Assembly (NCBI GenBank): GCA_023435925.1
Contig: JAEZLF010000152.1
Location: 5,589 to 69,588 of the forward strand
Length of the DNA: 64,000 nt
Reading direction: 5' to 3'
Source of the DNA: Bacillota bacterium
GTDB lineage: Bacteria; Bacillota; Clostridia; Acetivibrionales; DTU013
The position numbers and the translations under genes are program-made. Under the pieces are notes generated by a model that saw only the letters and a program-made list of their open reading frames with translations, made no database searches and was not told the origin of the DNA. The stretch's first letter is position 1, and each line of letters starts with the position of its first letter. Positions 8,157 to 31,962 of this stretch are shown here, piece by piece.

Positions 8157-8170
8157 GAAAAATACAAACA

Positions 8171-8204: not shown

Positions 8205-8206
8205 TC

Positions 8207-8235
8207 TTGTATTTCTTTCCAATAACCAATATAAT
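8207..8235 (+). promoter_or_regulatory. sigma-A-type promoter candidate for the NRPS operon
   Basis: TTGTAT, 17 nt, TATAAT, located 58 nt upstream of the NRPS ORF. Confidence 0.45.
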
Positions 8236-8293
8236 TTATTTATATAGGATTTTATGTCGTCAAACATTATGATACCCCACTTATGATAACGAG

Positions 8294-11200
8294 GTGATCG
8301 CCTTGCACAATAATATTGATTTTTATCCTCTTACCCATCCACAAAAGGCAGTCTGGTTTACTGAAAAGCTGCACCCGGGCACATCCATCGGCAATGTCGC
8401 CGCAACTCTAAGAATGAAAGGAACAATCGATTTTTCAGTCCTTGAAAAGGCTATTAATCTGTTTATAAAAAATAATGATTCCATGCGTCTTCGTATTATT
8501 GAGATAGATGGAGAGCCGAAACAATATTTTTCAGAATATCAATATCATACATTTGAGACCATAGATTTTTCTGGTATGGATATCAACGAGTTATACAAAT
8601 GGGATTCATTACAATCAAAAACTCCGCTGGAATTGATTGATTCAGATTTATTTTACTTTGTACTGATAAAATTAAGTGATAATGATAACGGGTTTTACGT
8701 TAAATGCCACCATTTGATTGCAGATGCATGGTCCATGAATCTGCTCGGAAGCAGGATCATGCATATTTATTATGCAATGAAAGGTGAAAGTGAGATTCCT
8801 GAGTTGTATACTCCTTCTTATACTGACTTCATGATGAGTGAAGATCAATATATGGCTTCAAACAGATATATCAAGGATCAGGAATATTGGGACAAGATAT
8901 TTGAATCATTTCCCGAAAGGACTATATTAAAAGCAGATCCACCGGAGCATACCAGTATTAAAGCCAGACGGAAAACAATGATTGCACCAAAAAAACTCAC
9001 TGCCAGGATTTATCAATATTGCTATGAGAATAAAACTTCTGTTTTTTCTCTGTTTGTTGCCGCATTGTCGATGTATATCAACCGAGTGACTGATAAAAAT
9101 GATATCATTTTAGGGACTACGACTTTGAACAGGCTTAATACGAAAGAAAAGGAAACAGTCGGTATGTTCAATAACATTGTCCCAATTCGTATTGATATGA
9201 ATGACAACATGAATTTTAGAACCCTCATTGAGAATGTATCAAGGGAAGGGCTTAAACTATTAAGGCATCAGAAATACCCATATGATTATATTTTGAAATC
9301 GGTCAGGGAGAAGCATCAGATTACGGATAATATCTTTAATATTGTGTTGATTTATCAAAATACAAAGCTTGATATGGACCATATCAAAGAAGAATTTTCC
9401 TCTAGGTGGCATTTTAATGGTTATCAGGTAGATTCTCTGCATATTAGTATCAATGACAGAGAAAATGAAGGAAACCTTATTATTGACTATGACTATCAGA
9501 CAGACTTGTTCCATGCAAAAGAAATTGACTTTATTCATCAGAACATCATTAATGTTTTGTGGCATGCTTTGGACGATCCTGCGAAAACTGTCTCCAGATT
9601 GGAAATGCTCTCTGAAAAAGAGAAATGCAGAATACTACGAGAATTCAACAAGACCAAAATCATTTGCCCTGATGGGTTGGAAACTGATTCTTCGGAAGAA
9701 TATCACAAAGCAATGCTTAGAAAGATTCCAGCACAAACAAAATCCTATATTCTGGATAAAAATCTCAATCTTATGCCAATAGGAATTGCAGGGGATTTAT
9801 TTATTTCAGGAAAAAGCATATCAAATGACAGGCGAAAGGAACTGGTGTTTTTAGATGGAGCCGGCTTACCAAATCCGTATTCCGATGGTGACAGACTTTA
9901 TAGAACCGGTTATAAAGCCAGATGGTACCCGGACGGAGACATATTGTATCTGGGAAGTGTTGTGCCGGGAAACTCATTGAAGTCTGAAAGAATTTATAAT
10001 AAAAGTGAAATAGTAGTTGATATTTTATCCACTTTTACTGCTGAGCCTGTTGAAAGCTATATAAAATGGTGGGGAAGACAATTCGGATATCATTTAAAAA
10101 TAAACTTCGCAGGATACAACCAGATATTTCAGGAGCTTTTGAACCCTGAAAGCTTATTATCAAAGAATAATGACGGAATCAACGTCATTCTGATAAGGTT
10201 TGAGGATTTTATCAGATATGAAAACGGCTCTGATGAAGAAAAAATCAGTATACTGGAAAAAACACAGGAAGAGCTGAAGGACGCTTTTGGCAGTTTTGAG
10301 AGCAAAGCATCCACTGTGGTGGGAATTTTCCCACTGGCGCCTTATTTGGATATGAGTATAGTACTGCAGCAAAAAATTGAAAAGATCAGTATGGATTTCA
10401 AAAGAGCGCTTGAAAAGCATAAAAATGTATTCATTCTGGATTTTTGTGAGATGCAGGCAATATACGGTATTCATGAGGTATTCGATTCTCTTCAGGATAA
10501 AGAGGCGCATATGCCTTTTACAGAAGAATATTATGCAGCAATGGGAACTGAACTAGCGAGGAAAGTATGCGCGATTAGGAAGCAGACATTGAAGGTAATC
10601 GTACTGGATTGTGATAACACTCTGTGGAAAGGAATATGTGGAGAGCAGGGAGCTCTTGGTGTCCATATAACCGAACCTTACCGGCAGCTGCAGCAGTTTA
10701 TGCTTCAGAAATATCAGGAAGGATTTTTGCTTGCAGTTTGCAGTAAAAACAATGAGAAGGATGTTCTTGAAGTCTTTGAAAAGAACCCCGGAATGATTTT
10801 AGAGAAAAAACATTTTATTTCATGGAAAATCAACTGGAAAGAAAAAAGCATAAATATTAAAGAGATTGCAGAGGATTTAAATCTCGGCTTGGACAGCTTC
10901 ATTTTCGTGGATGATAATCCGCTGGAATGCTCCAAAATGGCGGAAAGCTGCCCTGAGGTATTAACTTTGCAGTTACCGTATGTAAATGAATACATACCAC
11001 TGTTTCTGAAACATGTTTGGGCCTTTGACAAGGTGAGGATAACCAATGAAGATATTCTAAGGAATGAGATGTATGAGGCAGAGGCAAAAAGAAAAACGCT
11101 ACAAAATGCAAATAGTACCTTTAAGCAATTTATGCACAGTCTCCATTTGAAAGTCAGCATGAGGGTTATTACAGACGATGAAATTGAAAGAGCGGCACAG

Positions 11201-14200
11201 CTGACACATCGTACAAATCAGTTTAATCTGAGCACGATCAGAAGAAGTGAAGAAGAATTGACTCTTTTATTAGAGAATAAATCCTATACAGGCTTTGTCG
11301 TTGAAGCGTCTGATAGATTTGGGGATTATGGCATCATCGGACTTGTCCTTTTGTATGATGACCGGGAAAAGATCTTCATTGATACATTCCTGATGAGCTG
11401 CAGAATATTTGGCAGAAATGTGGAAAATGTTATGCTCGCAGGAATCGGAAGATTTGCCCGCGAGAGAAAACGAGAGAGGATAGAGGCCGCTTTTGTATCA
11501 ACGGAAAAAAATAAACCCACTTATGAATTTATTATTCTCAATAAGTGGGAACTTCTGATGGAAGCGGATAAGCGGCAGTTGTACTGCATAAAAACAGAAG
11601 AGCTGAAAAAGAAAGTAGAGGGTGTTGAGTTTTATTATAATAAGAAGTTTGCAGATGCTAATGCAGACGGATTATATAAAGGAAATGTGTGTTTGGAACA
11701 CAAGGCAGGAGAGACCGCAAAGACTCATAGCAGCAGCTTCCTGCCGCAATATGATCCGGATTACAATGTGGAATCATATGAGCATATACGTCACAAGGAA
11801 TATATCCTGCCACTCAAATATTTGACGGCAGAAAAACTACTGCAAATTTCTTACGGGTATTGTTCTGATGCGACTTTGTCCGGATTTAATACTACTGAAA
11901 ATGGGAAACAGGAAAAACTCCTGCACATTTGGAAAAGGTTATTAAAAACAGACAAGATTGAGATAGAGGATGATTTTTTTAAGCTTGGTGGTGACTCGTT
12001 GAGTGCTGTTATTCTCCTATCAAACATCAGGAAAGAATTTGGCGTAGAGCTGGCCTTAAAGGATGTTTTCAGATCGGGTACCATTAAAAAGCTTGCACAG
12101 ATTATTGCGGGGTCAAGCAGTAAAAAGGAGGAGCATATAGAACCCGTTGAACCCAAAGCGTATTATGATCTTTCTTCTGCACAGAAAAGAATGTATATAC
12201 TCAATAAGATGGAAGGTCATTCTACAGTATATAATGAATGTCATAGAATTCTCATTGAAGGGAAACTGGATAGAAACAAGTTGGAATCCGCTTTCCAACA
12301 ATTTGTAAACAGACATGAAATTATGAGAACCGGATTTGAGATGATTGAATCGGGACCGGTTCAAATTGTATATGACGATGTAGACTTTAAAATTCCATTT
12401 GCAAAAGTAAAGGAAGAAGACGTACTTAAGGTGACGGATGAATTCATCCAGCCCTTTGATTTACGCAAACCGCCATTAATAAGAGCATCGTTGCTGGAGG
12501 TTGCTAAGGAACGTCATATTCTTTTGTTAGATGTCCATCATATTATTATTGACGGAGCGTCTTTCGGTATATTGATTAAAGAAATTCAGGCTTTATACCG
12601 GGGCAGTGCATTGAGACCGTTGCGAATCCAATATAAGGACTTTGCAAATTGGCAAAATAAATACTTAGTGTCGAATGCAATAAAGAAGCAGGAAGAATAC
12701 TGGAAGCAACAATTTAGCGATGGAATACCGGTGCTGAATATGCCGACAGATCATCCAAGGCCCGCAGTACAAAGCTTTCATGGAAGATGGTACTATTTTA
12801 AACTGGACTCTATTCAAACGGACAGACTAAAAAGCATTTGCGGCATAACAAACACAACACTGTTTATGCTGCTTTATGCTGCTTTTAATGTTTTGTTGCA
12901 CCGATACTCCAGTCAGGAGGATATTGTTGTTGGAATTCCCGTATCCGGCAGAAATCATGAGGATGTAAAAAACATTGCAGGTATGTTTGTCAATACGCTG
13001 CCAATCAGAACGAGTCCTAAAAGTAACTGCAAATTCAGCGAGTATTTAGAGGCAGTAAAAGAAACGATATTAAAGGGACTGGAGAATCAGGATTATCAAT
13101 ATGAAAATTTGGTAGACAAACTCAGCGTACAGAGAGAGCTTAACAGAAATCCGCTGTTTGATATCCTGTTTTCGATGCAGAATACGGATATACCGGATAT
13201 TCAGCTGGATGGCCTTTCTATGAAGCAGTGTAAAGTTGATAGTCACAAATCGAAATTTGATTTATCCCTGCTGGCAGCAGAAAAAAACAATGAATTAGAA
13301 TTTGGATTGGAATATTGCACAGATCTTTTTGAAGAGTATTCTATATTACGACTAAAGGATCATTTTTTGAATATTTTGAAGGACGTGTCAGACAACCTCC
13401 AAAAACCAATATCCGAAATAGAAATATTAAGTGAAGAGGAAAAGAATAAAATCTTATATGAATTTAATAGTACACAGGCGGACTATCCCCGAGATAAGAC
13501 CATACATCAATTGTTTGAAGAACAGGCAGCAAAAACACCGGATGATATTGCTGTTGTATTTGAGAATAAGGAATTGACATACTCCAGGCTTAATACGAGA
13601 GCGAATCAACTTGCAGCATTACTCAGGGATAAAGGTGTAGAACCCGGTGTAATTGTCGGAATTATGGTGAATCGATCATTGGAATTGGTTGTCGGGATTC
13701 TTGCTATCCTAAAAGCAGGTGGAGCCTATCTACCTGTCGATCCCGGTTACCCGGAGGAACGGATCAGATATATGCTTGAGGACAGCGGTATGAAGCTGCT
13801 ACTGACCTCAACTGCTCTTAACAGGCAAGCTTCTTTTGATGATATGATCTATATAAATGAGTGTTTTTCCGGTTTTGATGATGGCGTTTCTTGTTTTAAC
13901 CTCACGAATTTGAATAAATCCAGTGATTTGCTTTATGTAGTATATACTTCTGGTTCTACAGGACAGCCTAAAGGCGTAATGCTCGAGCACAGGAACATGG
14001 CAAACTTAATACATTTTCAGTACACAAAGACAGGGATCAATTTTAAGGAAAGAACCATGCAATTTGCTTCAATGAGCTTTGATGTATGTTCGCAGGAAAT
14101 ATTTTCTGCGCTGCTTACTGGTGGCACATTGGCAATCCTGAGTGATCGGGACAAGAACCGGGTTAACAGTATGTGCGAATTTATTAGGGTACAAAATATT

Positions 14201-15229
14201 AGTGTCATGTTTTTGCCTACTGCATTTTTTAAGTTTTTGGCAAGTCAGAAGGATTATTTGGAGTTGATTCCTGAAAGTGTGAAGCATATTATTGTAGCTG
14301 GAGAAAAACTAACACTAAATGAATATGCCAAGGATTTTTTCAAAAATAGGAATATCAGCCTGCATAATCATTATGGTCCTGCCGAAACCCATGTGGTGAC
14401 AACATATTCTATGGACAAAAACACAATGCTGAAGGATATCCCTTATATAGGGAAGCCCATTTCAAACACACAAATATATATTCTGGATAGCTTGCATCAT
14501 GTACAGCCAATCGGTATTTATGGAGAAATCTATATTGCCGGTGACAACGTAGGCAGAGGATACGCGAATAAGACAGATCTGACAATGAGAAGGTTTAAAA
14601 CCATTGAGATGGGCAAAACAAAAATCAGATGTTATCAAACCGGAGACGTAGGTCGGTGGATACATGACGGTAACATAGAATTTCTCGGCAGGAATGACAA
14701 TCAGGTAAAGATAAGAGGTTACAGGGTTGAACTGGAGGAGGTAGAGAAATGCTTATTAAAGCATGCCGGAATACGGGAATGTGTTGTCATAACGAGAAAG
14801 TTTCCAAACGGAAATACTGATTTGGTGGCATATTTCACTTCGGATGAAGTAGTTGATATCGATTCATTGAAAAGCACCCTAAAAAAGCATTTGCCTATTT
14901 ATATGATTCCGAAGTATTATATGCAAGTAGAAAAAATACAGTTGACGAAGAATGGAAAGGTAAATAAGGACAATTTACCAAATCTGATAATGAGTCCTGC
15001 AAAGAATAATTACACTCCTCCTGCAAGTGAAAAAGAAAAGGAACTTCTCAAAGTTTGGCGGAGTGTACTGGGAATTGACGATCTGAGTATCGAACATAAC
15101 TTTTTTGAAAATGGCGGAGACTCGCTTTTGCTTATTAAGGTTTTATTAGAAGCAGAAAAAAAGGGATATGAAATAACAGTAAAAGATATGTACTTAAAAC
15201 CGAGTGTCAAAGAATTATGCAGATCATAA
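8294..15229 (+). CDS. non-ribosomal peptide synthetase-like megasynthase, C-(A remnant)-FkbH-like-T-C-A-T
   Basis: Motifs in order: HHLIADAWS (C1); SYILDKNLNLMPIGIAGDLFISG...YRTGYKARWYPDGD (A6-A8-like remnant); VLDCDNTLW (HAD-IIIC/FkbH-type); FFKLGGDSLS (T1); HHIIIDGASF (C2). The A domain shows LTYSRLN, YTSGSTGQPKG, NHYGPAET, GEIYIAGDNVGRGY, YQTGDVGRW and GRNDNQVKIRG. T2 is FFENGGDSLL. The start may instead be TTG 8303, behind GAGGTGA. Confidence 0.9.
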   Translation: MIALHNNIDFYPLTHPQKAVWFTEKLHPGTSIGNVAATLRMKGTIDFSVLEKAINLFIKNNDSMRLRIIEIDGEPKQYFSEYQYHTFETIDFSGMDINELYKWDSLQSKTPLELIDSDLFYFVLIKLSDNDNGFYVKCHHLIADAWSMNLLGSRIMHIYYAMKGESEIPELYTPSYTDFMMSEDQYMASNRYIKDQEYWDKIFESFPERTILKADPPEHTSIKARRKTMIAPKKLTARIYQYCYENKTSVFSLFVAALSMYINRVTDKNDIILGTTTLNRLNTKEKETVGMFNNIVPIRIDMNDNMNFRTLIENVSREGLKLLRHQKYPYDYILKSVREKHQITDNIFNIVLIYQNTKLDMDHIKEEFSSRWHFNGYQVDSLHISINDRENEGNLIIDYDYQTDLFHAKEIDFIHQNIINVLWHALDDPAKTVSRLEMLSEKEKCRILREFNKTKIICPDGLETDSSEEYHKAMLRKIPAQTKSYILDKNLNLMPIGIAGDLFISGKSISNDRRKELVFLDGAGLPNPYSDGDRLYRTGYKARWYPDGDILYLGSVVPGNSLKSERIYNKSEIVVDILSTFTAEPVESYIKWWGRQFGYHLKINFAGYNQIFQELLNPESLLSKNNDGINVILIRFEDFIRYENGSDEEKISILEKTQEELKDAFGSFESKASTVVGIFPLAPYLDMSIVLQQKIEKISMDFKRALEKHKNVFILDFCEMQAIYGIHEVFDSLQDKEAHMPFTEEYYAAMGTELARKVCAIRKQTLKVIVLDCDNTLWKGICGEQGALGVHITEPYRQLQQFMLQKYQEGFLLAVCSKNNEKDVLEVFEKNPGMILEKKHFISWKINWKEKSINIKEIAEDLNLGLDSFIFVDDNPLECSKMAESCPEVLTLQLPYVNEYIPLFLKHVWAFDKVRITNEDILRNEMYEAEAKRKTLQNANSTFKQFMHSLHLKVSMRVITDDEIERAAQLTHRTNQFNLSTIRRSEEELTLLLENKSYTGFVVEASDRFGDYGIIGLVLLYDDREKIFIDTFLMSCRIFGRNVENVMLAGIGRFARERKRERIEAAFVSTEKNKPTYEFIILNKWELLMEADKRQLYCIKTEELKKKVEGVEFYYNKKFADANADGLYKGNVCLEHKAGETAKTHSSSFLPQYDPDYNVESYEHIRHKEYILPLKYLTAEKLLQISYGYCSDATLSGFNTTENGKQEKLLHIWKRLLKTDKIEIEDDFFKLGGDSLSAVILLSNIRKEFGVELALKDVFRSGTIKKLAQIIAGSSSKKEEHIEPVEPKAYYDLSSAQKRMYILNKMEGHSTVYNECHRILIEGKLDRNKLESAFQQFVNRHEIMRTGFEMIESGPVQIVYDDVDFKIPFAKVKEEDVLKVTDEFIQPFDLRKPPLIRASLLEVAKERHILLLDVHHIIIDGASFGILIKEIQALYRGSALRPLRIQYKDFANWQNKYLVSNAIKKQEEYWKQQFSDGIPVLNMPTDHPRPAVQSFHGRWYYFKLDSIQTDRLKSICGITNTTLFMLLYAAFNVLLHRYSSQEDIVVGIPVSGRNHEDVKNIAGMFVNTLPIRTSPKSNCKFSEYLEAVKETILKGLENQDYQYENLVDKLSVQRELNRNPLFDILFSMQNTDIPDIQLDGLSMKQCKVDSHKSKFDLSLLAAEKNNELEFGLEYCTDLFEEYSILRLKDHFLNILKDVSDNLQKPISEIEILSEEEKNKILYEFNSTQADYPRDKTIHQLFEEQAAKTPDDIAVVFENKELTYSRLNTRANQLAALLRDKGVEPGVIVGIMVNRSLELVVGILAILKAGGAYLPVDPGYPEERIRYMLEDSGMKLLLTSTALNRQASFDDMIYINECFSGFDDGVSCFNLTNLNKSSDLLYVVYTSGSTGQPKGVMLEHRNMANLIHFQYTKTGINFKERTMQFASMSFDVCSQEIFSALLTGGTLAILSDRDKNRVNSMCEFIRVQNISVMFLPTAFFKFLASQKDYLELIPESVKHIIVAGEKLTLNEYAKDFFKNRNISLHNHYGPAETHVVTTYSMDKNTMLKDIPYIGKPISNTQIYILDSLHHVQPIGIYGEIYIAGDNVGRGYANKTDLTMRRFKTIEMGKTKIRCYQTGDVGRWIHDGNIEFLGRNDNQVKIRGYRVELEEVEKCLLKHAGIRECVVITRKFPNGNTDLVAYFTSDEVVDIDSLKSTLKKHLPIYMIPKYYMQVEKIQLTKNGKVNKDNLPNLIMSPAKNNYTPPASEKEKELLKVWRSVLGIDDLSIEHNFFENGGDSLLLIKVLLEAEKKGYEITVKDMYLKPSVKELCRS

Positions 15230-15247: not shown

Positions 15248-17161
15248 ATGACGAATAAAGTATATCTGATTCTGGTTTGTATTACTACCGTTTTACTTGC
15301 TTTACTGGAAGTTTACCTAAATAAAAGTGTGAAAAGTAAAAAAACGATACATGCTTTTTTTGAATATGCAATTCTAAGCATTGGCATTACAAACATTGGC
15401 TATATTTTGATGCTCACGCTGGAGATTTTTTTTCAGTATTATAATACGATTTCTTTTGTATATATCATATTTTTAGGCGCATCTTTTTTTCCTGTGTTTT
15501 TTCTTTTGTTTGGATTGGCTTTTGCAAAACGGGATTTTTCTTTTGAGAGAAAGTATTTGTTTTTATTTGTTATACCGGTGCTAACAAACATTGTTTTATG
15601 GACGAACAGCAGCCATAATCTTTTTTATAAAGAGTACCTTACAAGCTCGGAATACATATATGGACCGTATTTCCTGGTACACATTTTATGGCTATATGGG
15701 TGCGTATTGATTGGGATTGGTAAGCTCTTGTCCTTCTCTATAAAGAATGCAGGTTTCTTTTCCAAGCAGGCTTTGCTTATTATCGCAGGTACTGTACTAC
15801 CTCTCGTTCTTGATGTCGTGTGGATAATGGGAAGCTTTCTTGATATTGAATATTTGAAAATGTTTTCCCAATATGATATTACCCCGATAACTTTTACTTT
15901 TGCAATTATCTGTTATGCACTTGCAATTTTTAAGTTTGATTTTTTAAATGTCGTTCCAATTGCTCTGCAGAGAATAGTGGATATCATATCCGACGGTTTT
16001 ATTGTGATTGATGAAGATTTCAATATTATTGATTATAACGAAACATTTTTAAGTAATTTCAGTAAAATAGCGGATTTTAAGAGGAAAGATAATATCATTG
16101 ATGTATTGGTGGAAAACAATGTACCAGGCATAGATTCAGCGTTGCTCGCCGGTTACTTAAGAAAAGCAGTGGGAAATAAAGAATCTGTGCTGTTTGAAAA
16201 GCAAATAGTATCCAGTGATTTCAATAAATATTTCACAGTTGAAATAACCCCTATTTTTTCTGAAGATAAGAAGAGCTATAATAAGGAAAAGCTTGTAGAG
16301 CGCAAAGGAAAATCCAGTTTGATTGGCATTATCATCCTGCTTAAAGATATTACAGAGCATAAGATGAATCTGAAGGCATTAAAGGAAAACCAGGAAATCC
16401 TCCTCGAACAGGAGCGTCTTGCGTCGCTGGGGCAATTGATCGGTGGAATTGCACATAATCTGAAGACGCCGATCATGTCGATATCCGGAGGTATAGAGGC
16501 ACTTAGGGATCTGACATTCGAATACAGAGATTCAATTGATGATAAAAGTGTTACCGAACAGGATCACAAGGAAATCGCCAGAGAAATGATGTCCTGGTTG
16601 GACAGGATGAAGCCCTATTGCGGGTATATGTCGGATGTGATATCGGCAGTTAAGGGACAAGCTGTTCAGATGAATGCATCTGTAACAAGCAAATTTACAG
16701 TAGATGAACTCATCAAAAGGGTAGATCTGTTGATGAAACATGAACTGAAGAAATACCACTGTATTTTAAAGACTGAAATGAATATTGATAAGAGTACCGA
16801 AATCAAAGGGGAGATTACCAATCTGGTACAGGTTTTCGATAACATCATCATCAATGCCATGCAAGCATACGAAGGCGAAAATGGGTCAATTGACTTGAAA
16901 ATTACACGTAGTGGTGATAATGTTGAATTTATATTTAAAGATCAAGGGAAGGGTATTCCAAAGCAAATTGCGGATAGATTGTTTAAGGAAATGGTTACTA
17001 CGAAAGGCAAAAAAGGTACAGGACTGGGTTTATACATGTCATATTCCACCATTAAAGGCCGATTTGGCGGGAACATGTCTTTTGTATCGAAGGAAGGACA
17101 TGGAACTACCTTTTTTATATCCATACCGTGTATAGCATACAACAGACAGGAGGCAGAATAG
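15248..17161 (+). CDS. sensor histidine kinase with N-terminal polytopic (7TM-type) domain and PAS-like region
   Basis: About 7 hydrophobic helices in the first 240 aa. H-box LGQLIGGIAHNLKTPI. HATPase_c motifs (NLVQVFDNIIINAMQA, DQGKGIP, GTGLGLYMS). AGGAG RBS 18 nt after the NRPS stop. Confidence 0.85.
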   Translation: MTNKVYLILVCITTVLLALLEVYLNKSVKSKKTIHAFFEYAILSIGITNIGYILMLTLEIFFQYYNTISFVYIIFLGASFFPVFFLLFGLAFAKRDFSFERKYLFLFVIPVLTNIVLWTNSSHNLFYKEYLTSSEYIYGPYFLVHILWLYGCVLIGIGKLLSFSIKNAGFFSKQALLIIAGTVLPLVLDVVWIMGSFLDIEYLKMFSQYDITPITFTFAIICYALAIFKFDFLNVVPIALQRIVDIISDGFIVIDEDFNIIDYNETFLSNFSKIADFKRKDNIIDVLVENNVPGIDSALLAGYLRKAVGNKESVLFEKQIVSSDFNKYFTVEITPIFSEDKKSYNKEKLVERKGKSSLIGIIILLKDITEHKMNLKALKENQEILLEQERLASLGQLIGGIAHNLKTPIMSISGGIEALRDLTFEYRDSIDDKSVTEQDHKEIAREMMSWLDRMKPYCGYMSDVISAVKGQAVQMNASVTSKFTVDELIKRVDLLMKHELKKYHCILKTEMNIDKSTEIKGEITNLVQVFDNIIINAMQAYEGENGSIDLKITRSGDNVEFIFKDQGKGIPKQIADRLFKEMVTTKGKKGTGLGLYMSYSTIKGRFGGNMSFVSKEGHGTTFFISIPCIAYNRQEAE

Positions 17162-18670
17162 ATGCGGAGAAAAGCACAAGCAACCAGGTCAAACTACAGA
17201 ATCCTTGTCGTGGACGACGAGATAGGCATTATTGACTCTCTGTCCGTTGTTTTGAAGCGGAGCGGTTATGACTTTACCGGATTGGTGGATCCGCTGGAGG
17301 CTATTGAAAGAGTAAAGACGGAACATTTTGATTTGATGATTCTGGATTTTCTGATGTATCCTATTCATGGCGACAAGGTGGTGCAGACAATCCGGGAGTT
17401 TAATAGTGAATTGTACATTTTACTGCTAACAGGACATAAGGATCTGGCACCGCCTCTTGAAACTATCAAGGCTCTGGATATTCAGGGTTATTGCGAAAAG
17501 AGTGACCGATTTGACCAGCTGTTATTACTTGTAGAATCGGGAATCAAATCCATCTCGCAGATGCGGACTATCAAGAAATTCAGAGACGGTCTTAACAAAA
17601 TACTAGAAGCTGTGCCGAAGATTTATTCGCTCCAGCCTATCGATTCCATATTGCAGGATATACTGTCAGAAATCATGCCTTTGGTGGATAGTGAGAACGC
17701 GTTTATTTTAGTTGATGATACTACGGATATTATTGCCGGTAACAAAAGTATATTTAAAGGTATTGGTAAGTATAAGGCGGAGATTGACTGTTTTATGGAG
17801 ATGCTGAGCCCGAATCTCATGGAACACATCGGATATTCAAGGATATCCCGGCAGGTGGTTAAGCTGGAACAGAGTGTGATATTACCGTTGATCAACGAAT
17901 TTCATCAGACCATTGGCGTTATATTTGTTGAAAGTACAAATATTGAGGATGGCCTGAAGCTGTTGGAGATCTACTCGAATCAGGCGGCATCTTCAATTAA
18001 CAATGCCTTTCTTCATTCACTGGTCAATATGAAAAATGATGAACTCAATAAAACATATGACCTGCTCAAACTTAGATATATGGATACAATTGAAGCATTA
18101 AGGCAGGCCGTTGATGCAAAGGATATTTATACCAGAGGCCATTCTGACCGCGTTGCCTATTATGCCGTCAGAATCGGTGAAGCTGCAGGAATGACAGCAC
18201 ACGAGCTTGAAACTCTCCGAATCAGCGGTGTCTTTCATGATATCGGGAAGATTGGAACAGCGGACGACATTTTACTGAAAACCGACAGGCTTGACGACAG
18301 GGAGCTATTGGAGATACAAAAGCATCCAATTAAGGGAGCTCGAATTTTATCGGCGGTCTCCATGTTTAAGGATGTGGTTCCAATAGTGAAATGTCACCAT
18401 GAAAGAGTGGATGGAACGGGTTACCCGGATGGTTTAAAAAAAGATGAAATACCATTGTCGGCAAGAATTATATCAGTGTCCGATGCATTTGATGCCATGA
18501 TGTCCGACCGGCTTTACCGATCGAAGCTAAATCTTGAAGAAGCGAGGCAGCAGTTGATTAACGGCTCAGGCACACAATTCGATGAGGACATTGTCTCGAT
18601 ATTCATAAAGCTCATCGATGGCACAGGCTTTGGCGAAATGCTGAAGGAAACTGCTGCCACATATGAGTAA
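17162..18670 (+). CDS. response regulator with HD-GYP (c-di-GMP phosphodiesterase-type) output domain
   Basis: REC domain (ILVVDDE, DLMILDFLM), a central GAF-like spacer, and HD-GYP motifs HSDRVAYY, FHDIGKIG, HHERVDGTGYPDGL. The ATG directly abuts the kinase stop codon. Confidence 0.85.
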   Translation: MRRKAQATRSNYRILVVDDEIGIIDSLSVVLKRSGYDFTGLVDPLEAIERVKTEHFDLMILDFLMYPIHGDKVVQTIREFNSELYILLLTGHKDLAPPLETIKALDIQGYCEKSDRFDQLLLLVESGIKSISQMRTIKKFRDGLNKILEAVPKIYSLQPIDSILQDILSEIMPLVDSENAFILVDDTTDIIAGNKSIFKGIGKYKAEIDCFMEMLSPNLMEHIGYSRISRQVVKLEQSVILPLINEFHQTIGVIFVESTNIEDGLKLLEIYSNQAASSINNAFLHSLVNMKNDELNKTYDLLKLRYMDTIEALRQAVDAKDIYTRGHSDRVAYYAVRIGEAAGMTAHELETLRISGVFHDIGKIGTADDILLKTDRLDDRELLEIQKHPIKGARILSAVSMFKDVVPIVKCHHERVDGTGYPDGLKKDEIPLSARIISVSDAFDAMMSDRLYRSKLNLEEARQQLINGSGTQFDEDIVSIFIKLIDGTGFGEMLKETAATYE

Positions 18671-25786: not shown

Positions 25787-25899
25787 ACAAGGGCCATGAA
25801 CTGCGGATGAATGAAATCAAAACCAGAGTTTTCCCGATAAATAATTGAAACCATGTACTAAAATGAATACATGAGATTGTGAAATATTTATTTTATGGG

Positions 25900-25928
25900 T
25901 TGTAAATAATGGAAGTGCATGTTATAAT
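25900..25928 (+). promoter_or_regulatory. sigma-A-type promoter candidate (extended -10) for the hyd-like operon
   Basis: TTGTAA, 17 nt, (TGT)TATAAT. Confidence 0.45.
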
Positions 25929-25946
25929 GTACTTAAATCCAAACAA

Positions 25947-25964
25947 TAGTTAATAAATTAACAA
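25947..25964 (+). promoter_or_regulatory. Rex-type operator candidate
   Basis: TAGTTAATAAATTAACAA matches the clostridial Rex consensus TTGTTAA-N4-TTAACAA at 13 of its 14 specified positions (N4 unconstrained). It lies just downstream of the -10 box. Confidence 0.5.
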
Positions 25965-26207
25965 AAATAACGATCGATTTAAATCTTTATATTCCACTTC
26001 TTTGAACGGCTTTCGAACAGCATCATGTTGTACCGCACAGATTGCAGCATGGTTTTACACCGATTGTTTTCCGAAAAATTAACTTTAGCAAAAATCAACT
26101 TTCGAGAAGAATCAACATTTACAAGGAATTGTTAAAAAAACACCAATGTAAGCATTTGTATGGCGATATTCCCAATTCGATTCATGTTATCTGCGAGGAG
26201 GGTTTTT

Positions 26208-26741
26208 ATGGGTGTTCAGACGAAAGCATGCGCGTGCAGAAAAGAGACAGACCAGGAAAAGCTTGCAAGAATTGCTGCAGTCATCGAGGACTACAGAGAC
26301 AAAGAGGGCAGTCTGATACAAATATTACACATGGCACAGGGCATTTATGGATATCTGCCTCTCCAGGTCCAGCAATTCATTGCAGAAAAGCTTGAGAAAC
26401 CACTGTCTGAGGTCAGCGGCGTAGTTACCTTCTACTCTTTTTTCTCAACGCAGCCAAAAGGTGAAAATACCATACGGGTCTGTCTGGGTACAGCCTGCTA
26501 TGTAAGGGGCGGAAAGAAGATCATTGACAAGCTGAAGGAGATACTGGATGTAGACGTAGGAGGCACAACCAGGGACGGAAAGTTTTCATTGGAAGTCATG
26601 CGGTGTATCGGGGCTTGTGGGCTGGCACCGGCTATGACGATCAACGACAGGGTTTATAAACAGGTCAATCCTGATAAGCTCAGAAGCATTCTCAATACCT
26701 ATGGGGGAGGTGGAAAGCATGCCGCTGAAAACAAAAATTGA
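26208..26741 (+). CDS. NuoE/HydC-like [2Fe-2S] subunit
   Basis: VCLGTACYVRGG...RCIGACGLAP thioredoxin-like 2Fe-2S motif. ATG 26208 lies behind GAGGAGGG. Confidence 0.85.
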   Translation: MGVQTKACACRKETDQEKLARIAAVIEDYRDKEGSLIQILHMAQGIYGYLPLQVQQFIAEKLEKPLSEVSGVVTFYSFFSTQPKGENTIRVCLGTACYVRGGKKIIDKLKEILDVDVGGTTRDGKFSLEVMRCIGACGLAPAMTINDRVYKQVNPDKLRSILNTYGGGGKHAAENKN

Positions 26742-29700
26742 TCAAACGGATGACCTCTTTAAGATAAAAGAGTGCTATGATGAAAACCTGAAAAACATAG
26801 ATTTTGAAATACTGGTTTGCTCCGGTGCCGGGTGCATTTCTTCCAATTGCCAGGAGGTAAAGGATGCATTGATCAAATGCCTGGAAGAAAGGCTGCTGAC
26901 AGAAAAGGTAATTGTGGCTGAAACCGGTTGTATCGGTACTTGTGACCTGGGACCAGTGATGATCATTCATACTTTAAAGGAGTTTGGAGATCTATTGCGG
27001 GGAAAAGGTGTTATCTATACAAAGCTGACACCGCAGGACATCCCGTCTATCGTGGAAGCACATCTGGTCAATGGCAGTATCATATCAGATAAAACCTATT
27101 TTGATCCGAGGAAGAATGTGAACGTGCCATATATTGAGGATATTGACTACTTTAAAAATCAGGTGAAAATAGCGCTGAGAAACTGTGGTACTATTGATTT
27201 TGCTTCCATGGAGCAGTACATTGCAAAGGATGGGTATATGGCCATTGCAAAAGTATTGAAGGAGTATACACCACAGCAGGTAGTTGACGAGGTGAAAAAG
27301 GCAGGTTTGAAAGGGAGAGGCGGTGCAGGCTTTCCCACCGGAGTGAAGCTGGAATCAGGTATGAAAGCTCCAGGACCGGTAAAATATCTGGTTTGTAATG
27401 CGGATGAGGGTGATCCCGGGGCTTTTATGGACAGAAGTATTCTTGAAGGCGACCCCCACAGCATCATTGAAGGGATGCTGATCAGCGGTTATGCGATTGG
27501 TGCTGCGAATGGTTATGTTTATGTCCGTGCAGAATATCCGCTGGCTGTGGAAAGACTTGATCTGGCAATCCAAAAGGCAAGGAAGGCCGGACTCCTCGGC
27601 GATCATATACTGGGTACAGGCTTCTCATTCGATCTGGAGATCCGAATTGGGGCAGGTGCTTTTGTCTGCGGAGAAGAAACCGCGCTGATGGCATCGATTG
27701 AGGGGGAACGCGGAGAACCTCGTCAAAAGCCTCCATTTCCGTTCCAGCGGGGCCTATTTGGAAAGCCGACGATTATCAGCAATGTAGAGACCTATGCAAA
27801 CATTCCACCGATCATTCTGAAAGGCAGCAGCTGGTTTTCCCGTTTTGGAACAGAAAACAGCAAAGGAACAAAGGTTTTTGCTCTGGCCGGTGCTATCAAT
27901 AATACAGGAATTGTGGAAGTACCTATGGGCACAACACTGGGGGAAATTGTTTTTAATATCGGTGGAGGCATACGAAAAAATAAGGAGTTTAAAGCCGCTC
28001 AGACCGGTGGACCTTCCGGAGGCTGCATCACCAGAGACCACTTAAATACGCCGATGGACTATGATTCTCTTGTGAAGCTCGGCGCGATTATGGGCTCCGG
28101 TGGCTTGATTACCATGGATGAGGACACCTGTATGGTGGATATGGCACGATTTTTTATGGAATTCATACAGGAGGAATCCTGTGGAAAGTGTGTACCTTGC
28201 AGGCTGGGCACGAAACGGATGTTGGAAATCCTTGAAAGAATCACGAAAGGACAGGGCGAAGAAGGAGATATTGAAACGCTGGAGGAGCTTGGCGAAATGA
28301 TTAAGGAAGCTGCCGTATGCGGACTTGGTCAAACTGCGCCGAATCCTGTGCTTAGCATGATTCATAATTTCAGAGAAGAGTACGAGGAGCATATTAAATA
28401 CAAGTACTGCAGAGCCGGGGTATGTGCTGATCTGTTTATTTCACCTTGCCAGAACGCCTGTCCGGCGGGTGTTAATGTTCCCGGTTATGTCTCGCTGGTA
28501 GCTGCTGGGAGATTGAGAGATGCGTATAATCTTATCAGAAAGGAAAATCCTTTTCCTGCTGTGTGCGGCAGGGTATGCACCCATGAGTGTGAAAGCAAAT
28601 GCAGAAGAGGCCAGTTGGACGAACCAGTTGCCATAGCCGACCTGAAACGGTATGTAGCGGACTATGTGCTGAAAAATGAAATGCCTTATCTGGATCTGGT
28701 ATTTCCAAAGAAGGGAAAGAGTGTCGCAATTATCGGTGCCGGACCATCCGGACTGACCTGCGGATATTATCTGGCAAGACTTGGCTATGAGGTGGATGTT
28801 TATGAATCTCAGCCTATAGCAGGCGGTGTTTTAGCCTTTGGAATTCCTGAATACCGGTTGCCTAACGAAGTACTGCAGCATGAAATCAGAATGATTGAAC
28901 AGGTTGGCGTCAAGATCCATCTTAATACCGAAATAGGCTCCGATATCACCTTCTACCAACTGAAGAGCAGCCATGATGCGCTTTATATAGCAACGGGGAC
29001 ACAATTTTCCAATCAGATCCGTATTCCTGGAGAGGATTTGAAAGGAGTATATCACGGACTGGATTTTCTCAGAGACGTCAATCTGAAGCACGATGTAAAA
29101 ATCGGAGGCTCCGTAGCGGTCATCGGAGGCGGTAATACGGCAATTGACGCTGCAAGAACAGCATTAAGGCTTGGGGCAAAAGAAGTTACAGTTCTTTACA
29201 GACGGTGCATGGAGGATATGCCTGCTGACAGCAGAGAGATAAGGGACGCAGAGGAAGAAGGCATCCGAATAATTCCTCTGGTGGCGCCGTTAAGCTTTAT
29301 TGGAAAGGACAGAGTCAGGGAAATCGAATGTGTCCGAATGGAACTGAAGGACTTTGATAATAGCGGGCGCAGAAAACCAAAGCCTATACCGGGATCGGAG
29401 TTTCAACTGAAGGTGGATCTGGTGATCCCGGCTGTCAGTCAGTATTCCGATCTTCCGTTTATTAACAGGGATGAGGTAGAGGTTACTCAGTGGGGAACAT
29501 TTGTCACAGACCGGGATACGTTGATGACAAAGATGAGAGGTGTATTTGCAGGCGGGGATGTTGTACGGGGCTCGGACACGGTCATTAAGGCTATTGCCGA
29601 CGGTAAAAATGCGGCAAAGGCCATCGACAAGTATCTTGGAGGCAAAGGCGTTCTGAATACCGGCGAAGATATTGATATTCCTGTGGCAGTGGATGAAAAA

Positions 29701-29847
29701 GAAATACTGGAGCATGAGAGATTTCCGATGAAATTCCTTCCTCCGCAAGAGCGCCGCTACAGCTTTGATGAGGTAGCTGTGGGCTTCCACAAGCTCAATG
29801 CCATTGCAGAAGCCATGAGATGTCTCAGATGCGACAGGAGGTGCTGA
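26719..29847 (+). CDS. NuoF/HydB-like flavoprotein fused to a GltD/NfnB-like NADPH-FAD module (1042 aa)
   Basis: GRGGAGFPTG (FMN/NADH site) and ESCGKCVPCR mark the NuoF part. From about 28396 the GltD-like part shows CGRVCTHECESKC, VAIIGAGPSGLTCGYYLA, VAVIGGGNTAIDAART and GVFAGGDVV. Confidence 0.85.
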   Translation: MPLKTKIDQTDDLFKIKECYDENLKNIDFEILVCSGAGCISSNCQEVKDALIKCLEERLLTEKVIVAETGCIGTCDLGPVMIIHTLKEFGDLLRGKGVIYTKLTPQDIPSIVEAHLVNGSIISDKTYFDPRKNVNVPYIEDIDYFKNQVKIALRNCGTIDFASMEQYIAKDGYMAIAKVLKEYTPQQVVDEVKKAGLKGRGGAGFPTGVKLESGMKAPGPVKYLVCNADEGDPGAFMDRSILEGDPHSIIEGMLISGYAIGAANGYVYVRAEYPLAVERLDLAIQKARKAGLLGDHILGTGFSFDLEIRIGAGAFVCGEETALMASIEGERGEPRQKPPFPFQRGLFGKPTIISNVETYANIPPIILKGSSWFSRFGTENSKGTKVFALAGAINNTGIVEVPMGTTLGEIVFNIGGGIRKNKEFKAAQTGGPSGGCITRDHLNTPMDYDSLVKLGAIMGSGGLITMDEDTCMVDMARFFMEFIQEESCGKCVPCRLGTKRMLEILERITKGQGEEGDIETLEELGEMIKEAAVCGLGQTAPNPVLSMIHNFREEYEEHIKYKYCRAGVCADLFISPCQNACPAGVNVPGYVSLVAAGRLRDAYNLIRKENPFPAVCGRVCTHECESKCRRGQLDEPVAIADLKRYVADYVLKNEMPYLDLVFPKKGKSVAIIGAGPSGLTCGYYLARLGYEVDVYESQPIAGGVLAFGIPEYRLPNEVLQHEIRMIEQVGVKIHLNTEIGSDITFYQLKSSHDALYIATGTQFSNQIRIPGEDLKGVYHGLDFLRDVNLKHDVKIGGSVAVIGGGNTAIDAARTALRLGAKEVTVLYRRCMEDMPADSREIRDAEEEGIRIIPLVAPLSFIGKDRVREIECVRMELKDFDNSGRRKPKPIPGSEFQLKVDLVIPAVSQYSDLPFINRDEVEVTQWGTFVTDRDTLMTKMRGVFAGGDVVRGSDTVIKAIADGKNAAKAIDKYLGGKGVLNTGEDIDIPVAVDEKEILEHERFPMKFLPPQERRYSFDEVAVGFHKLNAIAEAMRCLRCDRRC

Positions 29848-29849
29848 GA

Positions 29850-31637
29850 ATGATTAATCTGATCATAAACAATAAAGAAGTTTCGGCCCGGGAGGGCGAT
29901 ACGATACTGGAGGCAGCAAAGAGAAATAACATTGTGATTCCGCATTTCTGCTATATGGAAGGTGTACATCAGGCGGGTTCCTGCAGGATCTGTGTGGTTG
30001 AGGTAGAGGGGGCAAAAACACTTCAGGCCTCTTGCCTGGTACAGGTTCGCGAGGGAATGGTTGTCCGGACCAATACGCAGAAGGTGAAAAAAACCAGAAA
30101 GCTTCTATATGAGCTGATGCTGTCGGATCATCCGAAGGATTGCCTGAGCTGCGGAAGGAATCAGAGCTGTGAATTTCAGAAGCTGGGAGAAATGATGGGG
30201 ATTCAGGAGCAGCGATTTGAAGGAGAAAAATCGAAATCATATCTGGATGACCAATCCCCGTCTATTGTAAGAGATACCTCTAAATGTATTTTGTGCAGGC
30301 GATGTGTTGCGGTATGTAATCAAATACAGGGGGTCGGTGTGCTGAATGTTCAGCACAGAGGTTTTAAGACGGTGATCGGGCCTGCCGCAGAGCTTCCGTT
30401 GAATCAGGTGAACTGTACTTATTGCGGTCAATGTACAACGGTTTGTCCGGTGGGTTCATTACAGGAAAAGGACTCCACAAAAGCGGTGTGGGATGCGCTC
30501 TATAACACTGGTAAGAGGGTGGTGATTCAGACGGCCCCTGCAGTGCGAGCCGCTCTGGGAGAGGAATTTGGCTATGAGCCCGGCACACTGGTTACGGGAA
30601 AAATGGCAGCGGCATTGAAGGAACTAGGTTTTGACGATGTATTTGACACGAATTTTGCTGCCGATCTTACCATCATAGAGGAGGGAAGTGAGCTCCTTTC
30701 CAGAATAAACGATGCTTTCTCCGGAAAAGGGACAGTACTTCCCATGATTACGAGCTGCAGCCCCGGCTGGATCAAATATGTGGAGCATACGTGGCCAGAC
30801 GAGCTGGATCACCTATCCAGCTGCAAATCGCCCCATATGATGTTGGGAGCTCTTGTCAAAAGCTATTACGCGGATAAGCTGGGCATTGATCCTCAAAAAC
30901 TGTTTGTTGTATCTGTAATGCCCTGTACTGCTAAAAAGTATGAGATTACGCGGCAGGAAATGAGGAACAACGGGTTGGCTGACGTTGATGCGGTGCTGAC
31001 AACAAGAGAGCTGGCGCATATGATAAAGGAATCGGGAATTGATTTTTGTTCTCTGGAAGATAAGGAATTTGATCATCCGCTTGGATTGTCCACCGGAGCG
31101 GCTGATATTTTCGGTACTACCGGCGGTGTAATGGAAGCGGCTTTGCGAACGGTTTATGAGCTGATCACAGGTCGGGAACTGCCTTTTGATAAGCTGCATG
31201 TTGAGCCGATCGCAGGGCTGGAGAGAATAAAAACAGCGCAGCTTCTGATTCAGGATCCTTTACCCGATTACAAATTCCTTGACGGGGTTATATTAAAAAT
31301 TGCAGTCACCAGTGGATTAAACGGAGCCGCAGAACTGATGAAGGAAGTATCCGCGGGCACATCGCCTTATCACTTTATTGAAGTAATGGGATGCCCGGGC
31401 GGTTGTATCAGCGGTGGCGGGCAGCCAAGAACGACGACAAACGAGGTCAGATTGAAGCGGTTGGAAGCAATATACAGAGAGGATGAAGGGAAGACGCTGA
31501 GGAAATCCCATGAGAACCCGGCTGTCACCCGTCTGTACGAGGAATTTCTGATGAAACCTCTTGGTCACAAATCCCATGAACTGCTTCATACCCATTACAG
31601 GAAAAGGGGAATATTTAATCAATATGATAATGAATAA
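29850..31637 (+). CDS. [FeFe]-hydrogenase HydA-like protein (M3-type) with variant L1 motif
   Basis: N-terminal 2Fe-2S, HPKDCLSCGRNQSCE and 2x CxxCxxCxxxCP motifs. H-domain motifs: TSCSPGW (L1 variant), MPCTAKKYE (L2), EVMGCPGGCISGGGQP (L3). ATG lies behind AGGAGG. Confidence 0.85.
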   Translation: MINLIINNKEVSAREGDTILEAAKRNNIVIPHFCYMEGVHQAGSCRICVVEVEGAKTLQASCLVQVREGMVVRTNTQKVKKTRKLLYELMLSDHPKDCLSCGRNQSCEFQKLGEMMGIQEQRFEGEKSKSYLDDQSPSIVRDTSKCILCRRCVAVCNQIQGVGVLNVQHRGFKTVIGPAAELPLNQVNCTYCGQCTTVCPVGSLQEKDSTKAVWDALYNTGKRVVIQTAPAVRAALGEEFGYEPGTLVTGKMAAALKELGFDDVFDTNFAADLTIIEEGSELLSRINDAFSGKGTVLPMITSCSPGWIKYVEHTWPDELDHLSSCKSPHMMLGALVKSYYADKLGIDPQKLFVVSVMPCTAKKYEITRQEMRNNGLADVDAVLTTRELAHMIKESGIDFCSLEDKEFDHPLGLSTGAADIFGTTGGVMEAALRTVYELITGRELPFDKLHVEPIAGLERIKTAQLLIQDPLPDYKFLDGVILKIAVTSGLNGAAELMKEVSAGTSPYHFIEVMGCPGGCISGGGQPRTTTNEVRLKRLEAIYREDEGKTLRKSHENPAVTRLYEEFLMKPLGHKSHELLHTHYRKRGIFNQYDNE

Positions 31638-31962
31638 GCTGCTACAGTTCGTCTAAAAAAGGGGAAGAAGAGTATACCTCACATATTGGAAACGAACTGG
31701 AAACCTTATGGTTATGGCTTTCAGTTCGTTTCCGGGAGATGTGTATATAAAATCCAGTAGCTATTGACCATATCTATTACCGCATTCTCCCATTGGAGGA
31801 TGTTTTCAAGGTCCGGTAAGCTTCATGTGAAATAGAAGGGCGAAAGCAATAGTTGAAGATTTATGCGGAACATCCAACCATGCTTATTGATATTTGTCGG
31901 AACTTTTGATAATATGCTCGTAGACATTGCGGATGAGAGCTGTTCTTGAGGATAATGAGAAA

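Follow-up and report, generated by a model that had tools for sequence, protein, structure and literature searches.

A stretch of 64,000 nucleotides from contig JAEZLF010000152.1 of a Bacillota bacterium (assembly GCA_023435925.1), referred to here as the window, carries a HydABC-type operon in which the NuoF/HydB subunit is fused to a flavoprotein module of the GltD/NfnB type. To judge by its sequence, the product of the fused gene, hydB::gltD, is a HydB (BfuB) of the electron-bifurcating type in which the C-terminal domain with the clusters B3 and B4 has been replaced by the GltD module. The fusion is not an assembly artifact, since full-length homologs, annotated merely as NuoF or as an oxidoreductase dependent on flavin adenine dinucleotide (FAD), are found in >120 clusters of proteins (≥72% identity), and relatives are encoded in the genomes of 243 species (pattern-limited scan, one genome per species). 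The fusion enzyme is a real, well-conserved, widespread and biochemically uncharacterized architectural variant of the bifurcating hydrogenase family.

The three genes, hydC, hydB::gltD and hydA, lie on the plus strand and form a tight stand-alone operon (Table 1; all positions are those of the whole window). The flanking genes are unrelated, a gap of 420 nt lies on the 5′ side and a strong hairpin on the 3′ side. An initial annotation, made from the letters of the sequence, had proposed a three-gene HydABC-type operon with a 23-nt overlap and a 2-nt gap with AGGAGG, and the open reading frames (ORFs) and junctions are indeed arranged in this way, with hydC overlapping the fused gene by 23 nt and the AGGAGG for hydA (29835–29840) lying inside the 3′ end of the fused gene. 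It had also assigned to the middle protein of 1042 residues the N-terminal 2Fe-2S domain of HydB and a core for flavin mononucleotide (FMN) and reduced nicotinamide adenine dinucleotide (NADH), followed from about position 28396 by a complete GltD/NfnB-type unit with two Fe-S motifs, GxGxxG and GxGxxA. Pfam matches and structure alignments agree with this layout: position 28396 corresponds to residue 560, at the junction, and the C-terminal ∼470 residues match chains of the GltD/NfnB type (values given below). Two points go beyond that description, namely the replacement of B3/B4, which is key to the mechanism, and the circular permutation of the cassette, which is of the Stn type.

HydC is a NuoE/BfuC-type [2Fe-2S] subunit, the one that bears the C1 cluster (Pfam PF01257, 2Fe-2S_thioredx, 2.7e-50). 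Its best relative of solved structure is A. woodii HydC (7q4v_C, 2.5e-45), and both cysteine pairs align. In the fused protein, Pfam finds 2Fe-2S_thioredx (residues 29–113, a weak match), Complex1_51K (192–363, 1.9e-46), SLBB and NADH_4Fe-4S (474–558, 3.5e-36) in the N-terminal half and Fer4_20 (564–654, 1.3e-26) and Pyr_redox_2 (668–962, 9e-30) in the C-terminal half. Comparison with solved structures aligns residues 30–575 end to end with B subunits from enzymes for which bifurcation is proven. The best matches are the A. mobile NiFe-HydB (734 bits, 1e-219) and A. woodii HydB (714 bits, 2e-213); S. ovata StnB and T. kivui HydB (650 bits each) and the NfnB chains of C. saccharolyticus and T. 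sibiricus also match. The non-bifurcating Nqo1 reaches only ∼400 bits, and the match to respiratory NuoF is far poorer than that to the bifurcating B subunits.

Conservation was assessed in 72 full-length fusion homologs of 50%–85% identity. The cysteines of the B5 site (C34, C39, C71, C75) and of cluster B1 (C488, C491, C494, C534) and the hinge residues H558, C564 and C569 are invariant (72/72), as are the FMN and NADH loops, and the motifs GRGGxGFP, DPGAFMDR and GAGAFVCGEETAL are invariant or almost so. Within DPGAFMDR, A235 and M237 are retained in all 72 homologs and correspond to A202 and M204 of A. mobile, residues near the FMN that are given, together with F182, as Bfu-specific by Schut et al. 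(2022); the alignment did not reveal the counterpart of F182. The HydB half is judged to be of the bifurcating type because its closest solved relatives are bifurcating and because B5, B1, the hinge and the GAFM signature are all kept.

The hinge motif of the fusion aligns with HIRDKKCPAGVC in the solved HydB, StnB and NfnB chains, and in Bfu enzymes the linker to the C-terminal domain of BfuB is described as being stabilized by Zn (PMC10482914; PMC11829005). Homology to HydB ends at C569, and the alignment to every solved BfuB chain ends by about residue 575; there are no gaps at the junction, and C577 already belongs to the cassette. After the hinge, the ferredoxin-type 2x[4Fe-4S] domain (B3/B4) is absent, with neither a Fer4 Pfam match nor a CxxCxxCxxxCP motif, and the protein terminates in RCLRCDRRC. 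The module is fused to HydB, as the initial annotation had it, but it is not a mere extension of that subunit, since it takes the place of the ferredoxin-reducing domain.

The cassette begins 7 residues past C569 of the Zn hinge, with C577. Residues 575–1042 are matched best by the GltD-like insert of C. saccharolyticus NfnA (9bov_A, residues 102–567, 1e-130), next by T. sibiricus NfnA and S. ovata StnC, and then by the stand-alone T. maritima NfnB (4ylf_B, 8e-111) and GltD (5e-84). The tail of the protein (residues ∼999–1039; FPMKFLPPQERRYSFDEVAVGF...RCLRC) aligns to the N terminus of the canonical NfnB (4ylf_B, residues 3–43), which indicates that the cassette is circularly permuted, and its boundaries, PCxxACPA ... 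RCLxC, equal those of the Stn/Nfn-Bfu insert. The cluster ligands were mapped from C. saccharolyticus NfnA, whose FAD-proximal cluster is described in the structure paper with the ligands C108, C147, C151 and K170. On this mapping, the distal [4Fe-4S] cluster of the fusion would be held by C577, C628, C1035 and C1038, and the FAD-proximal cluster by C581, C620 and C624 together with K643 or C616. These residues and the motifs GAGPSG, GGGNTA and YRR are found in all 72 homologs, except for C616 (68/72). As both termini of the cassette supply ligands of the distal cluster, this cluster is placed beside the hinge, and the meeting of the termini there accounts for the splicing of the same cassette into different Fe-S wires. 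The structural work on Stn describes the GltD fold as an entry module for NADPH, the phosphorylated nucleotide, that "lost the ability to bifurcate". Bifurcation at the FAD of the cassette, as in NfnB, was considered and is unlikely, because there is no second exit path or NfnA-like partner and the closest modules, those of Stn, are non-bifurcating.

HydA has the M3 architecture, with Pfam matches to Fer2_4, the NuoG 4Fe-4S domain, two Fer4 domains, Fe_hyd_lg_C (7e-93) and Fe_hyd_SSU. The H-domain spans approximately 30513–31607, and the set of CpI-like accessory clusters is complete. The protein passes the NCBIfam model NF040763 ("NADH-dependent [FeFe] hydrogenase, group A6") with 881.7 bits against a cutoff of 765 and matches A. 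woodii HydA1 (7q4v_A) at 2e-185. The H-cluster motifs read TSCSPGW (L1, not TSCCPxW), MPCTAKKYE (L2) and EVMGCPGGCISGGGQP (L3), and in the forms TSCSPGW, MPCTAKKxE and ExMxCPGGCxxGGGQP they are invariant among the 60 HydA partners of the fusion. The possibility that TSCSPGW marks a dead H-cluster was rejected, because the active A. woodii HydA has the same serine ligand; in that enzyme, Ser301 replaces the cysteine, and the H-cluster signature and the activity are reported to be unaffected (Katsyv et al.). By its motifs, HydA is a genuine [FeFe]-hydrogenase and should work. Residues 298–310 (30741–30779), with TSCSPGW, and C325 (30822), an extra invariant cysteine in SSCKSP, recur in 60/60 partner HydAs; both features are common to A. 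woodii HydA1 and are not found in T. kivui or CpI. A second HydA paralog, 57% identical to that of the window, is encoded at locus L023 (10746–12467), ∼870 nt past the operon's own hydA.

The initial annotation had left two identities side by side, an NADP(H)-linked, possibly bifurcating hydrogenase and a Stn-like NADH/ferredoxin/NADP+ transhydrogenase. The former fits the data. The latter, in which the HydA-like subunit would be a mere Fe-S scaffold without H2 production, draws on the fact that a BfuBC-like core and a permuted GltD module are the building blocks of Stn. The lack of the maturase genes hydE, hydF and hydG in the window, noted earlier and upheld by a scan of every ORF of at least 150 residues, points the same way; nfn and rnf genes are likewise absent from the 64 kb, and the sole radical-SAM protein (54812–55681) is of the PA0069/Rv2578c type. 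Genes for HydA and its maturases are commonly unlinked. Against a scaffold role, the H-cluster motifs are invariant in the 60 partners and HydA passes a curated hydrogenase model, whereas the long subunit of Stn has no H-domain and itself bears the GltD module, and StnB keeps B3/B4. With the module on the other subunit, an H-cluster present and B3/B4 lost, the Stn-like identity fails and is very improbable.

On sequence comparison, the complex is hybrid-like between HydABC and Stn and a strict member of neither. The HydABC enzymes of A. woodii (7q4v/8a5e) and T. kivui (8a6t) are built from the same three subunits, likewise encoded in the order C-B-A, A. woodii HydA shares the serine-for-cysteine exchange in TSCSPGW, and HydB is alike up to the Zn hinge. 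From there, HydB of A. woodii and T. kivui ends in the 2x[4Fe-4S] domain that reduces ferredoxin through B3/B4, whereas the fusion ends in a 470-residue FAD/NADPH cassette; those enzymes have one nucleotide site and the enzyme of the window two. With the Stn/Nfn-Bfu enzymes (S. ovata 8oh5, C. saccharolyticus 9bov, T. sibiricus 9n5u), the complex shares a BfuBC-type core and the permuted cassette, including a lysine near the FAD-proximal cluster. In these enzymes, however, the cassette lies in the mid-potential input path, within the long NuoG-like A subunit (8oh5_C, 9bov_A and 9n5u_A, ∼102–567); this subunit lacks an H-cluster and its FdhF-like domain is dead, and ferredoxin is reduced by the B subunit, which retains B3/B4. 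In the complex of the window, the cassette is on the B subunit instead of B3/B4 and the A subunit is a real hydrogenase. NfnAB/NfnSL (T. maritima 4ylf, P. furiosus 5jca) has the same NfnB fold with FAD, two [4Fe-4S] clusters and an NADPH site with GxGxxA and YRR, but the module of the window is circularly permuted relative to NfnB, and the operon is devoid of the NfnA/S partner, with its [2Fe-2S] cluster, second FAD and NAD site, so that bifurcation at the FAD would have no second exit path. The NADP-specific bifurcating hydrogenases (T. kivui HydABC; C. autoethanogenum HytA-E/FdhA) likewise link H2 to NADP(H) in a NuoF-based complex; they use NADP at the sole FMN site, with ferredoxin as the second acceptor, and have no GltD module.

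As described for the HydABC, Stn and NfnABC structures, the site of bifurcation is the [B1-FMN-C1] flavobicluster; NAD at the FMN receives the high-potential electron, and the low-potential electron travels via the mobile C1 to B3/B4 of the C-terminal domain of BfuB, where ferredoxin docks. In the fusion enzyme, every part of this machinery is kept except B3/B4, and a two-cluster wire to FAD/NADPH lies in its place. This is the basis of the simplest reading, tentatively favored here, in which NADP(H) replaces ferredoxin on the gated branch and H2 is coupled to both NAD(H) and NADP(H). A single beta subunit of this soluble HydABC-type hydrogenase would then have two pyridine-nucleotide sites, an NAD(H)-type FMN site from bifurcating HydB and an NADP(H)-type FAD site in the cassette, with the latter sitting exactly where bifurcating HydB, StnB and NfnB bear the mobile ferredoxin-reducing B3/B4. 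Electrons from H2 would pass through the cluster chain of HydA to the flavobicluster, as in HydABC. The high-potential electron would remain on the FMN and reduce NAD+, and the gated low-potential electron would move to C1 of HydC, then to the distal and the proximal [4Fe-4S] clusters of the cassette, and from there to FAD and NADP+. The net reaction would be 2 H2 + NAD+ + NADP+ <-> NADH + NADPH + 2 H+, without ferredoxin. In fermenters it would run toward H2, with NADPH helping to drive H2 formation from NADH; in the alternative direction, H2 could charge the NADPH pool.

The physiological potentials given by Schut et al. (PMC9304861, Table 1) are approximately −280 mV for NAD, approximately −380 mV for NADP and −414 mV for H2 at 1 bar. 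The mean of the two nucleotide pools, −330 mV, equals the potential of the H+/H2 couple at ∼1.4e-3 bar H2 (our own Nernst calculation). Since the couple lies midway between the pools at this pressure, a shallow bifurcation or confurcation would be thermodynamically sensible at environmental H2. By analogy, the sister fusions that have formate-dehydrogenase subunits as partners (see below) appear to cover the same spectrum of mid-potential third substrates as the Bfu enzymes, which supports the reading with NADP(H) on the gated branch. With less confidence, the family as a whole may follow the Bfu mechanism independently of ferredoxin: electron pairs from H2 as the mid-potential donor, or from formate in the sister branch, would be split between NAD+ via the FMN (high-potential branch) and NADP+ via C1 and the cassette (low-potential branch). 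Such an enzyme would be a hydrogen-coupled transhydrogenase.

A number of observations weigh against the replacement of ferredoxin by NADP(H). The NAD and NADP pools differ by only ∼100 mV, so that obligatory coupling is not thermodynamically forced. For the NAD/NADP preference of the FMN site, the sole hint is a difference in the NADP-using T. kivui HydB (CGESTAL versus CGEETAL), a single comparison. An AlphaFold2 model of the 1042-residue fusion (34-sequence alignment) is poor, with a predicted local distance difference test score (pLDDT) of 65.8, a predicted template modeling score of 0.47, and pLDDT <50 at the junction and the cluster loops, which makes it unsuitable for judging where the cassette sits with respect to C1 and B1. 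In NfnAB, ferredoxin is described as docking at the distal [4Fe-4S] cluster of the same fold, so that reactivity with ferredoxin could persist in the fusion enzyme. In four divergent NuoF::GltD fusions (P0147, P0151, P0164 and P0182), the cassette is inserted rather than terminal and is followed by a 2x[4Fe-4S] domain of the ferredoxin type; in these proteins the cassette alone does not replace the ferredoxin site. Finally, a search of the literature accessible without subscription found no biochemical characterization of any HydB-GltD/NfnB fusion.

The small gap in potential would also suit an uncoupled dual-nucleotide hydrogenase, in which NADH at the FMN and NADPH at the FAD each exchange electrons with the H-cluster without gating, and transhydrogenation from NADPH to NAD+ is a side activity. 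The loss of B3/B4 is a hallmark of the non-bifurcating HydAB(C) enzymes as well, and in glutamate synthase and Stn the GltD fold is a plain entry module from NADPH to Fe-S clusters. Yet the beta subunits of non-bifurcating NADH hydrogenases (S. wolfei Hyd1ABC, S. aciditrophicus HydAB) are without B2–B5 entirely, whereas the fusion family, although it has lost B3/B4, retains the N-terminal [2Fe-2S] domain with B5, the Zn hinge, GAFM and HydC with C1. The invariance of these bifurcation-associated parts across 50%–85% identity argues that they are still under selection, and each of the three subunits has its closest relatives among enzymes for which bifurcation is proven. An uncoupled enzyme is regarded as somewhat unlikely. 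Close homologs already shown to be ordinary NADH-dependent hydrogenases, which the initial annotation had named as a potential objection, were not found in the literature searched.

Ferredoxin could also still be a substrate, either at the distal [4Fe-4S] cluster of the cassette, near which it binds in NfnB, or at the accessory clusters of HydA, as in monomeric enzymes of the CpI type; HydA does carry the full set of such clusters. The enzyme would then be a hub for four partners, H2, NAD, NADP and ferredoxin, for example a HydABC with an Nfn-like outlet. Clostridial fermenters obtain reduced ferredoxin from pyruvate:ferredoxin oxidoreductase, and the divergent relatives mentioned above keep a ferredoxin-like domain after the cassette. 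On the other hand, the dedicated docking domain and its lysine-rich loop are absent from the fusion, no conserved ferredoxin gene accompanies the fusion loci, and the distal cluster, tethered 7 residues from the hinge, may be buried. Retention of ferredoxin as a substrate is regarded as unlikely, and NADP(H) as the partner of the gated branch is kept as the working proposal.

The genomes with a relative of the fusion include Oscillospiraceae, Christensenellales, Peptococcaceae, Desulfitobacteriia and Ca. Dichloromethanomonas, and also Haloplasma, Brevinematales/Spirochaetota and Armatimonadota; Vallitalea guaymasensis L81 and Hydrogenispora ethanolica are cultured carriers. The fusion of the window is 85% identical to that of locus L001, and the organism is a relative of uncultured metagenome-assembled genomes of Oscillospiraceae/Bacillota. 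All loci with ≥58% identity show the order hydC - hydB::gltD - hydA as far as their contigs allow, and hydC lies upstream of the fused gene in 73 of the 81 loci compared. In these 81 loci there is no fourth conserved gene, ferredoxin gene or NfnA-like partner. Neighbor-joining trees were built separately for the NuoF and the GltD halves. In the NuoF-half tree, the HydA-linked fusions form a monophyletic clade (90/100 bootstraps) that stays intact in the GltD-half tree, and a clade linked to Fdh or GltB is supported as well. The backbones of both half-trees have bootstraps <10; a single origin of all NuoF-GltD fusions is not supported by them, and no claim is made for the number of fusion events.

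In the sister branch (Dehalococcoidia, Bipolaricaulota, Brocadiia), a NuoE - NuoF::GltD core of ∼50% identity is accompanied by partners other than HydA, as in loci L073, L074 and L076–L080 (∼8000–10800) and L065, L067, L069 and L071 (∼8100–10500). One type of partner is a molybdopterin subunit of ∼905 residues of the formate-dehydrogenase type, with a prismane/CO-dehydrogenase-family gene upstream in L076. The other type consists of a 235-residue N-terminal fragment of NuoG and a GltB-like protein of ∼530 residues. The gene for the FdhA-like partner in L077 (3539–6310) is broken by one in-frame stop at about residue 360, directly after which homology resumes; the stop could be a selenocysteine (TGA) codon.

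Other combinations of the same parts were encountered. The divergent fusions P0147, P0164, P0151 and P0182 (L082, 5001–8333; L083, 5001–8117) have 36%–38% identity; P0151 follows genes for a molybdopterin oxidoreductase and a polyferredoxin, and P0147 stands alone. A recurrent class of ∼650 residues (P0200 in L081, 153–7114, P0186, P0203, P0204, P0232, P0260, P0264 and P0275) has no FMN domain and consists only of the helix bundle of the NuoF B1 cluster, the hinge and the permuted GltD cassette. In L081, the P0200 gene directly precedes a NuoG-like gene and genes of the nuoJ/nuoK type, which suggests a complex-I-like assembly in which an NADPH/FAD input module replaces NuoF. Two loci of Spirochaetota/Brevinematales (L027, 3165–4433; L052, 3195–4466) have an extra stand-alone GltD/NfnB-like gene directly 5′ of hydC, 40% identical to the cassette.

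Table 1. Features of the hydC - hydB::gltD - hydA operon and its borders, in window coordinates
Feature	Position	Strand	Description
hydC	26208–26741	+	177 aa; ATG at 26208 with the ribosome-binding site GAGGAGG upstream
hydB::gltD	26719–29847	+	1042 aa; ATG at 26719 with GGGGGAGGTGG upstream; NuoF/BfuB and GltD-type module
N-terminal thioredoxin-like [2Fe-2S] domain, B5 site	26803–27057	+	C34, C39, C71, C75; partial PF01257 match
FMN/NAD(H) core and B1 [4Fe-4S]	27292–28392	+	C488, C491, C494, C534; Bfu-type GAFM signature
Hinge motif, Zn/"B2" site of Bfu enzymes	28390–28425	+	H558-x5-C564-x4-C569 (H558-IKYKY-C564-RAGV-C569)
Circularly permuted GltD/NfnB-type cassette	28441–29847	+	FAD (GAGPSG, residues 673–678), NADPH (GGGNTA, residues 803–808; YRR), 2x[4Fe-4S]
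hydA	29850–31637	+	595 aa; ATG 2 nt past the stop of the fused gene
Promoter-like site	25900–25928	+	TTGTAA-17-TATAAT with TG extension; ∼280 nt 5′ of hydC; best in region, 10/12
Hairpin	31686–31735	+	17-bp stem ∼50 nt past the hydA stop; minimum free energy −37.2 kcal/mol

Upstream of the operon lie genes for BipA, MltG/YceG, an O-methyltransferase, a U32 peptidase and a penicillin-binding protein, and downstream a sugar-type two-component system and an ABC transporter. The intergenic region 5′ of hydC (25787–26207; 420 nt) is AT-rich. The evidence from its promoter-like site is weak, such sites near hydC being no more frequent than in shuffled sequences; if the site is used, the leader of hydC would be ∼280 nt long. 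An Rfam scan of the ∼420-nt region upstream of hydC matched no family. The hairpin behind hydA is unusually stable (z = −3.85; 0/200 shuffles equally stable) and possibly marks the end of the transcript; it has no U-tract and was not flagged in the terminator scan; neither that scan nor the one for promoters rose above background. Long antisense ORFs within the fused gene and hydA (for example, 29290–29790, minus strand) recur in 60–64 related loci and are most likely shadow ORFs arising from conserved codons of the sense strand rather than genes. Elsewhere in the window, a nonribosomal peptide synthetase gene (8294–15229; 2311 residues, with two condensation, one AMP-binding and two PP-binding domains) stands among housekeeping genes and is followed at 15248–18670 by a seven-transmembrane histidine kinase and an HD-domain response regulator.

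The features listed for the Bfu family by Schut et al. (2022) are present in the complex (C1 in BfuC, FMN and B1 in BfuB, the B2 hinge, B5 and the A/M residues), except for the C-terminal B3/B4 domain, whose entry (IPR017896) was used for the selection of the family. Their selection domains would probably have excluded the fusion family, and that paper (PMC9304861) contains no mention of GltD or of fused forms. The HydDB rule, as described, assigns to A2 (glutamate-synthase-linked, uncharacterized) enzymes with GltD "but not NuoF" and to A3 (bifurcating) those with NuoF. The neighbor of hydA in the window carries both, which takes it out of A2, and the rule files it as A3. A 2026 pipeline for gut hydrogenases, in which glutamate-synthase domains are tested first, would call the locus A2. 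Neither class describes the fusion-type enzyme, and as the outcome hinges on the order of the NuoF and GltD tests, surveys probably misassign the family.

The sole explicit description of this architecture found in the literature accessible without subscription is a one-paragraph genome remark on a "second trimeric hydrogenase" of Vallitalea guaymasensis L81 (peg.3894–3896; PMC6163223, 2018), whose authors speculated about a link with glutamate metabolism. It is an annotation remark only, which neither surveys the family nor draws a connection to Stn or to the mechanism of the Bfu enzymes. The proposed connection with glutamate synthase was rejected: there is no gltB at HydA-type loci, and a GltB-like gene occurs only in the distant Dehalococcoidia branch.

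In the anaerobic communities of guts, digesters and sediments, it is the electron-bifurcating hydrogenases that determine the H2 balance, and their mechanism, with an FMN flavobicluster, a moving C1 gate and an exit to ferredoxin via B3/B4, is still debated. The fusion family is a natural experiment on this mechanism, in which the bifurcating core has been kept and the ferredoxin exit exchanged for an NADPH flavin module. Should the enzyme prove to be uncoupled, it would mark the Bfu features as insufficient for bifurcation. Should NADP(H) indeed serve the gated branch, this would be the first flavobicluster enzyme with a pyridine nucleotide, not ferredoxin, as the low-potential acceptor, and the permuted GltD cassette would be an insertable unit, built in the course of evolution into either the input wire or the output wire of one and the same bifurcating core. 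The enzyme would also make the low-potential branch simple to follow by spectroscopy, since NADPH, unlike ferredoxin, is easily monitored, and would provide a ferredoxin-free route between H2 and NADPH that is of interest for biocatalysis. The genes of the family are now counted as ordinary "A3 bifurcating" or "A2 unknown", and ferredoxin-free coupling would alter the metabolic models for many Clostridia, Christensenellales, Peptococcaceae and Brevinematales, among other groups.

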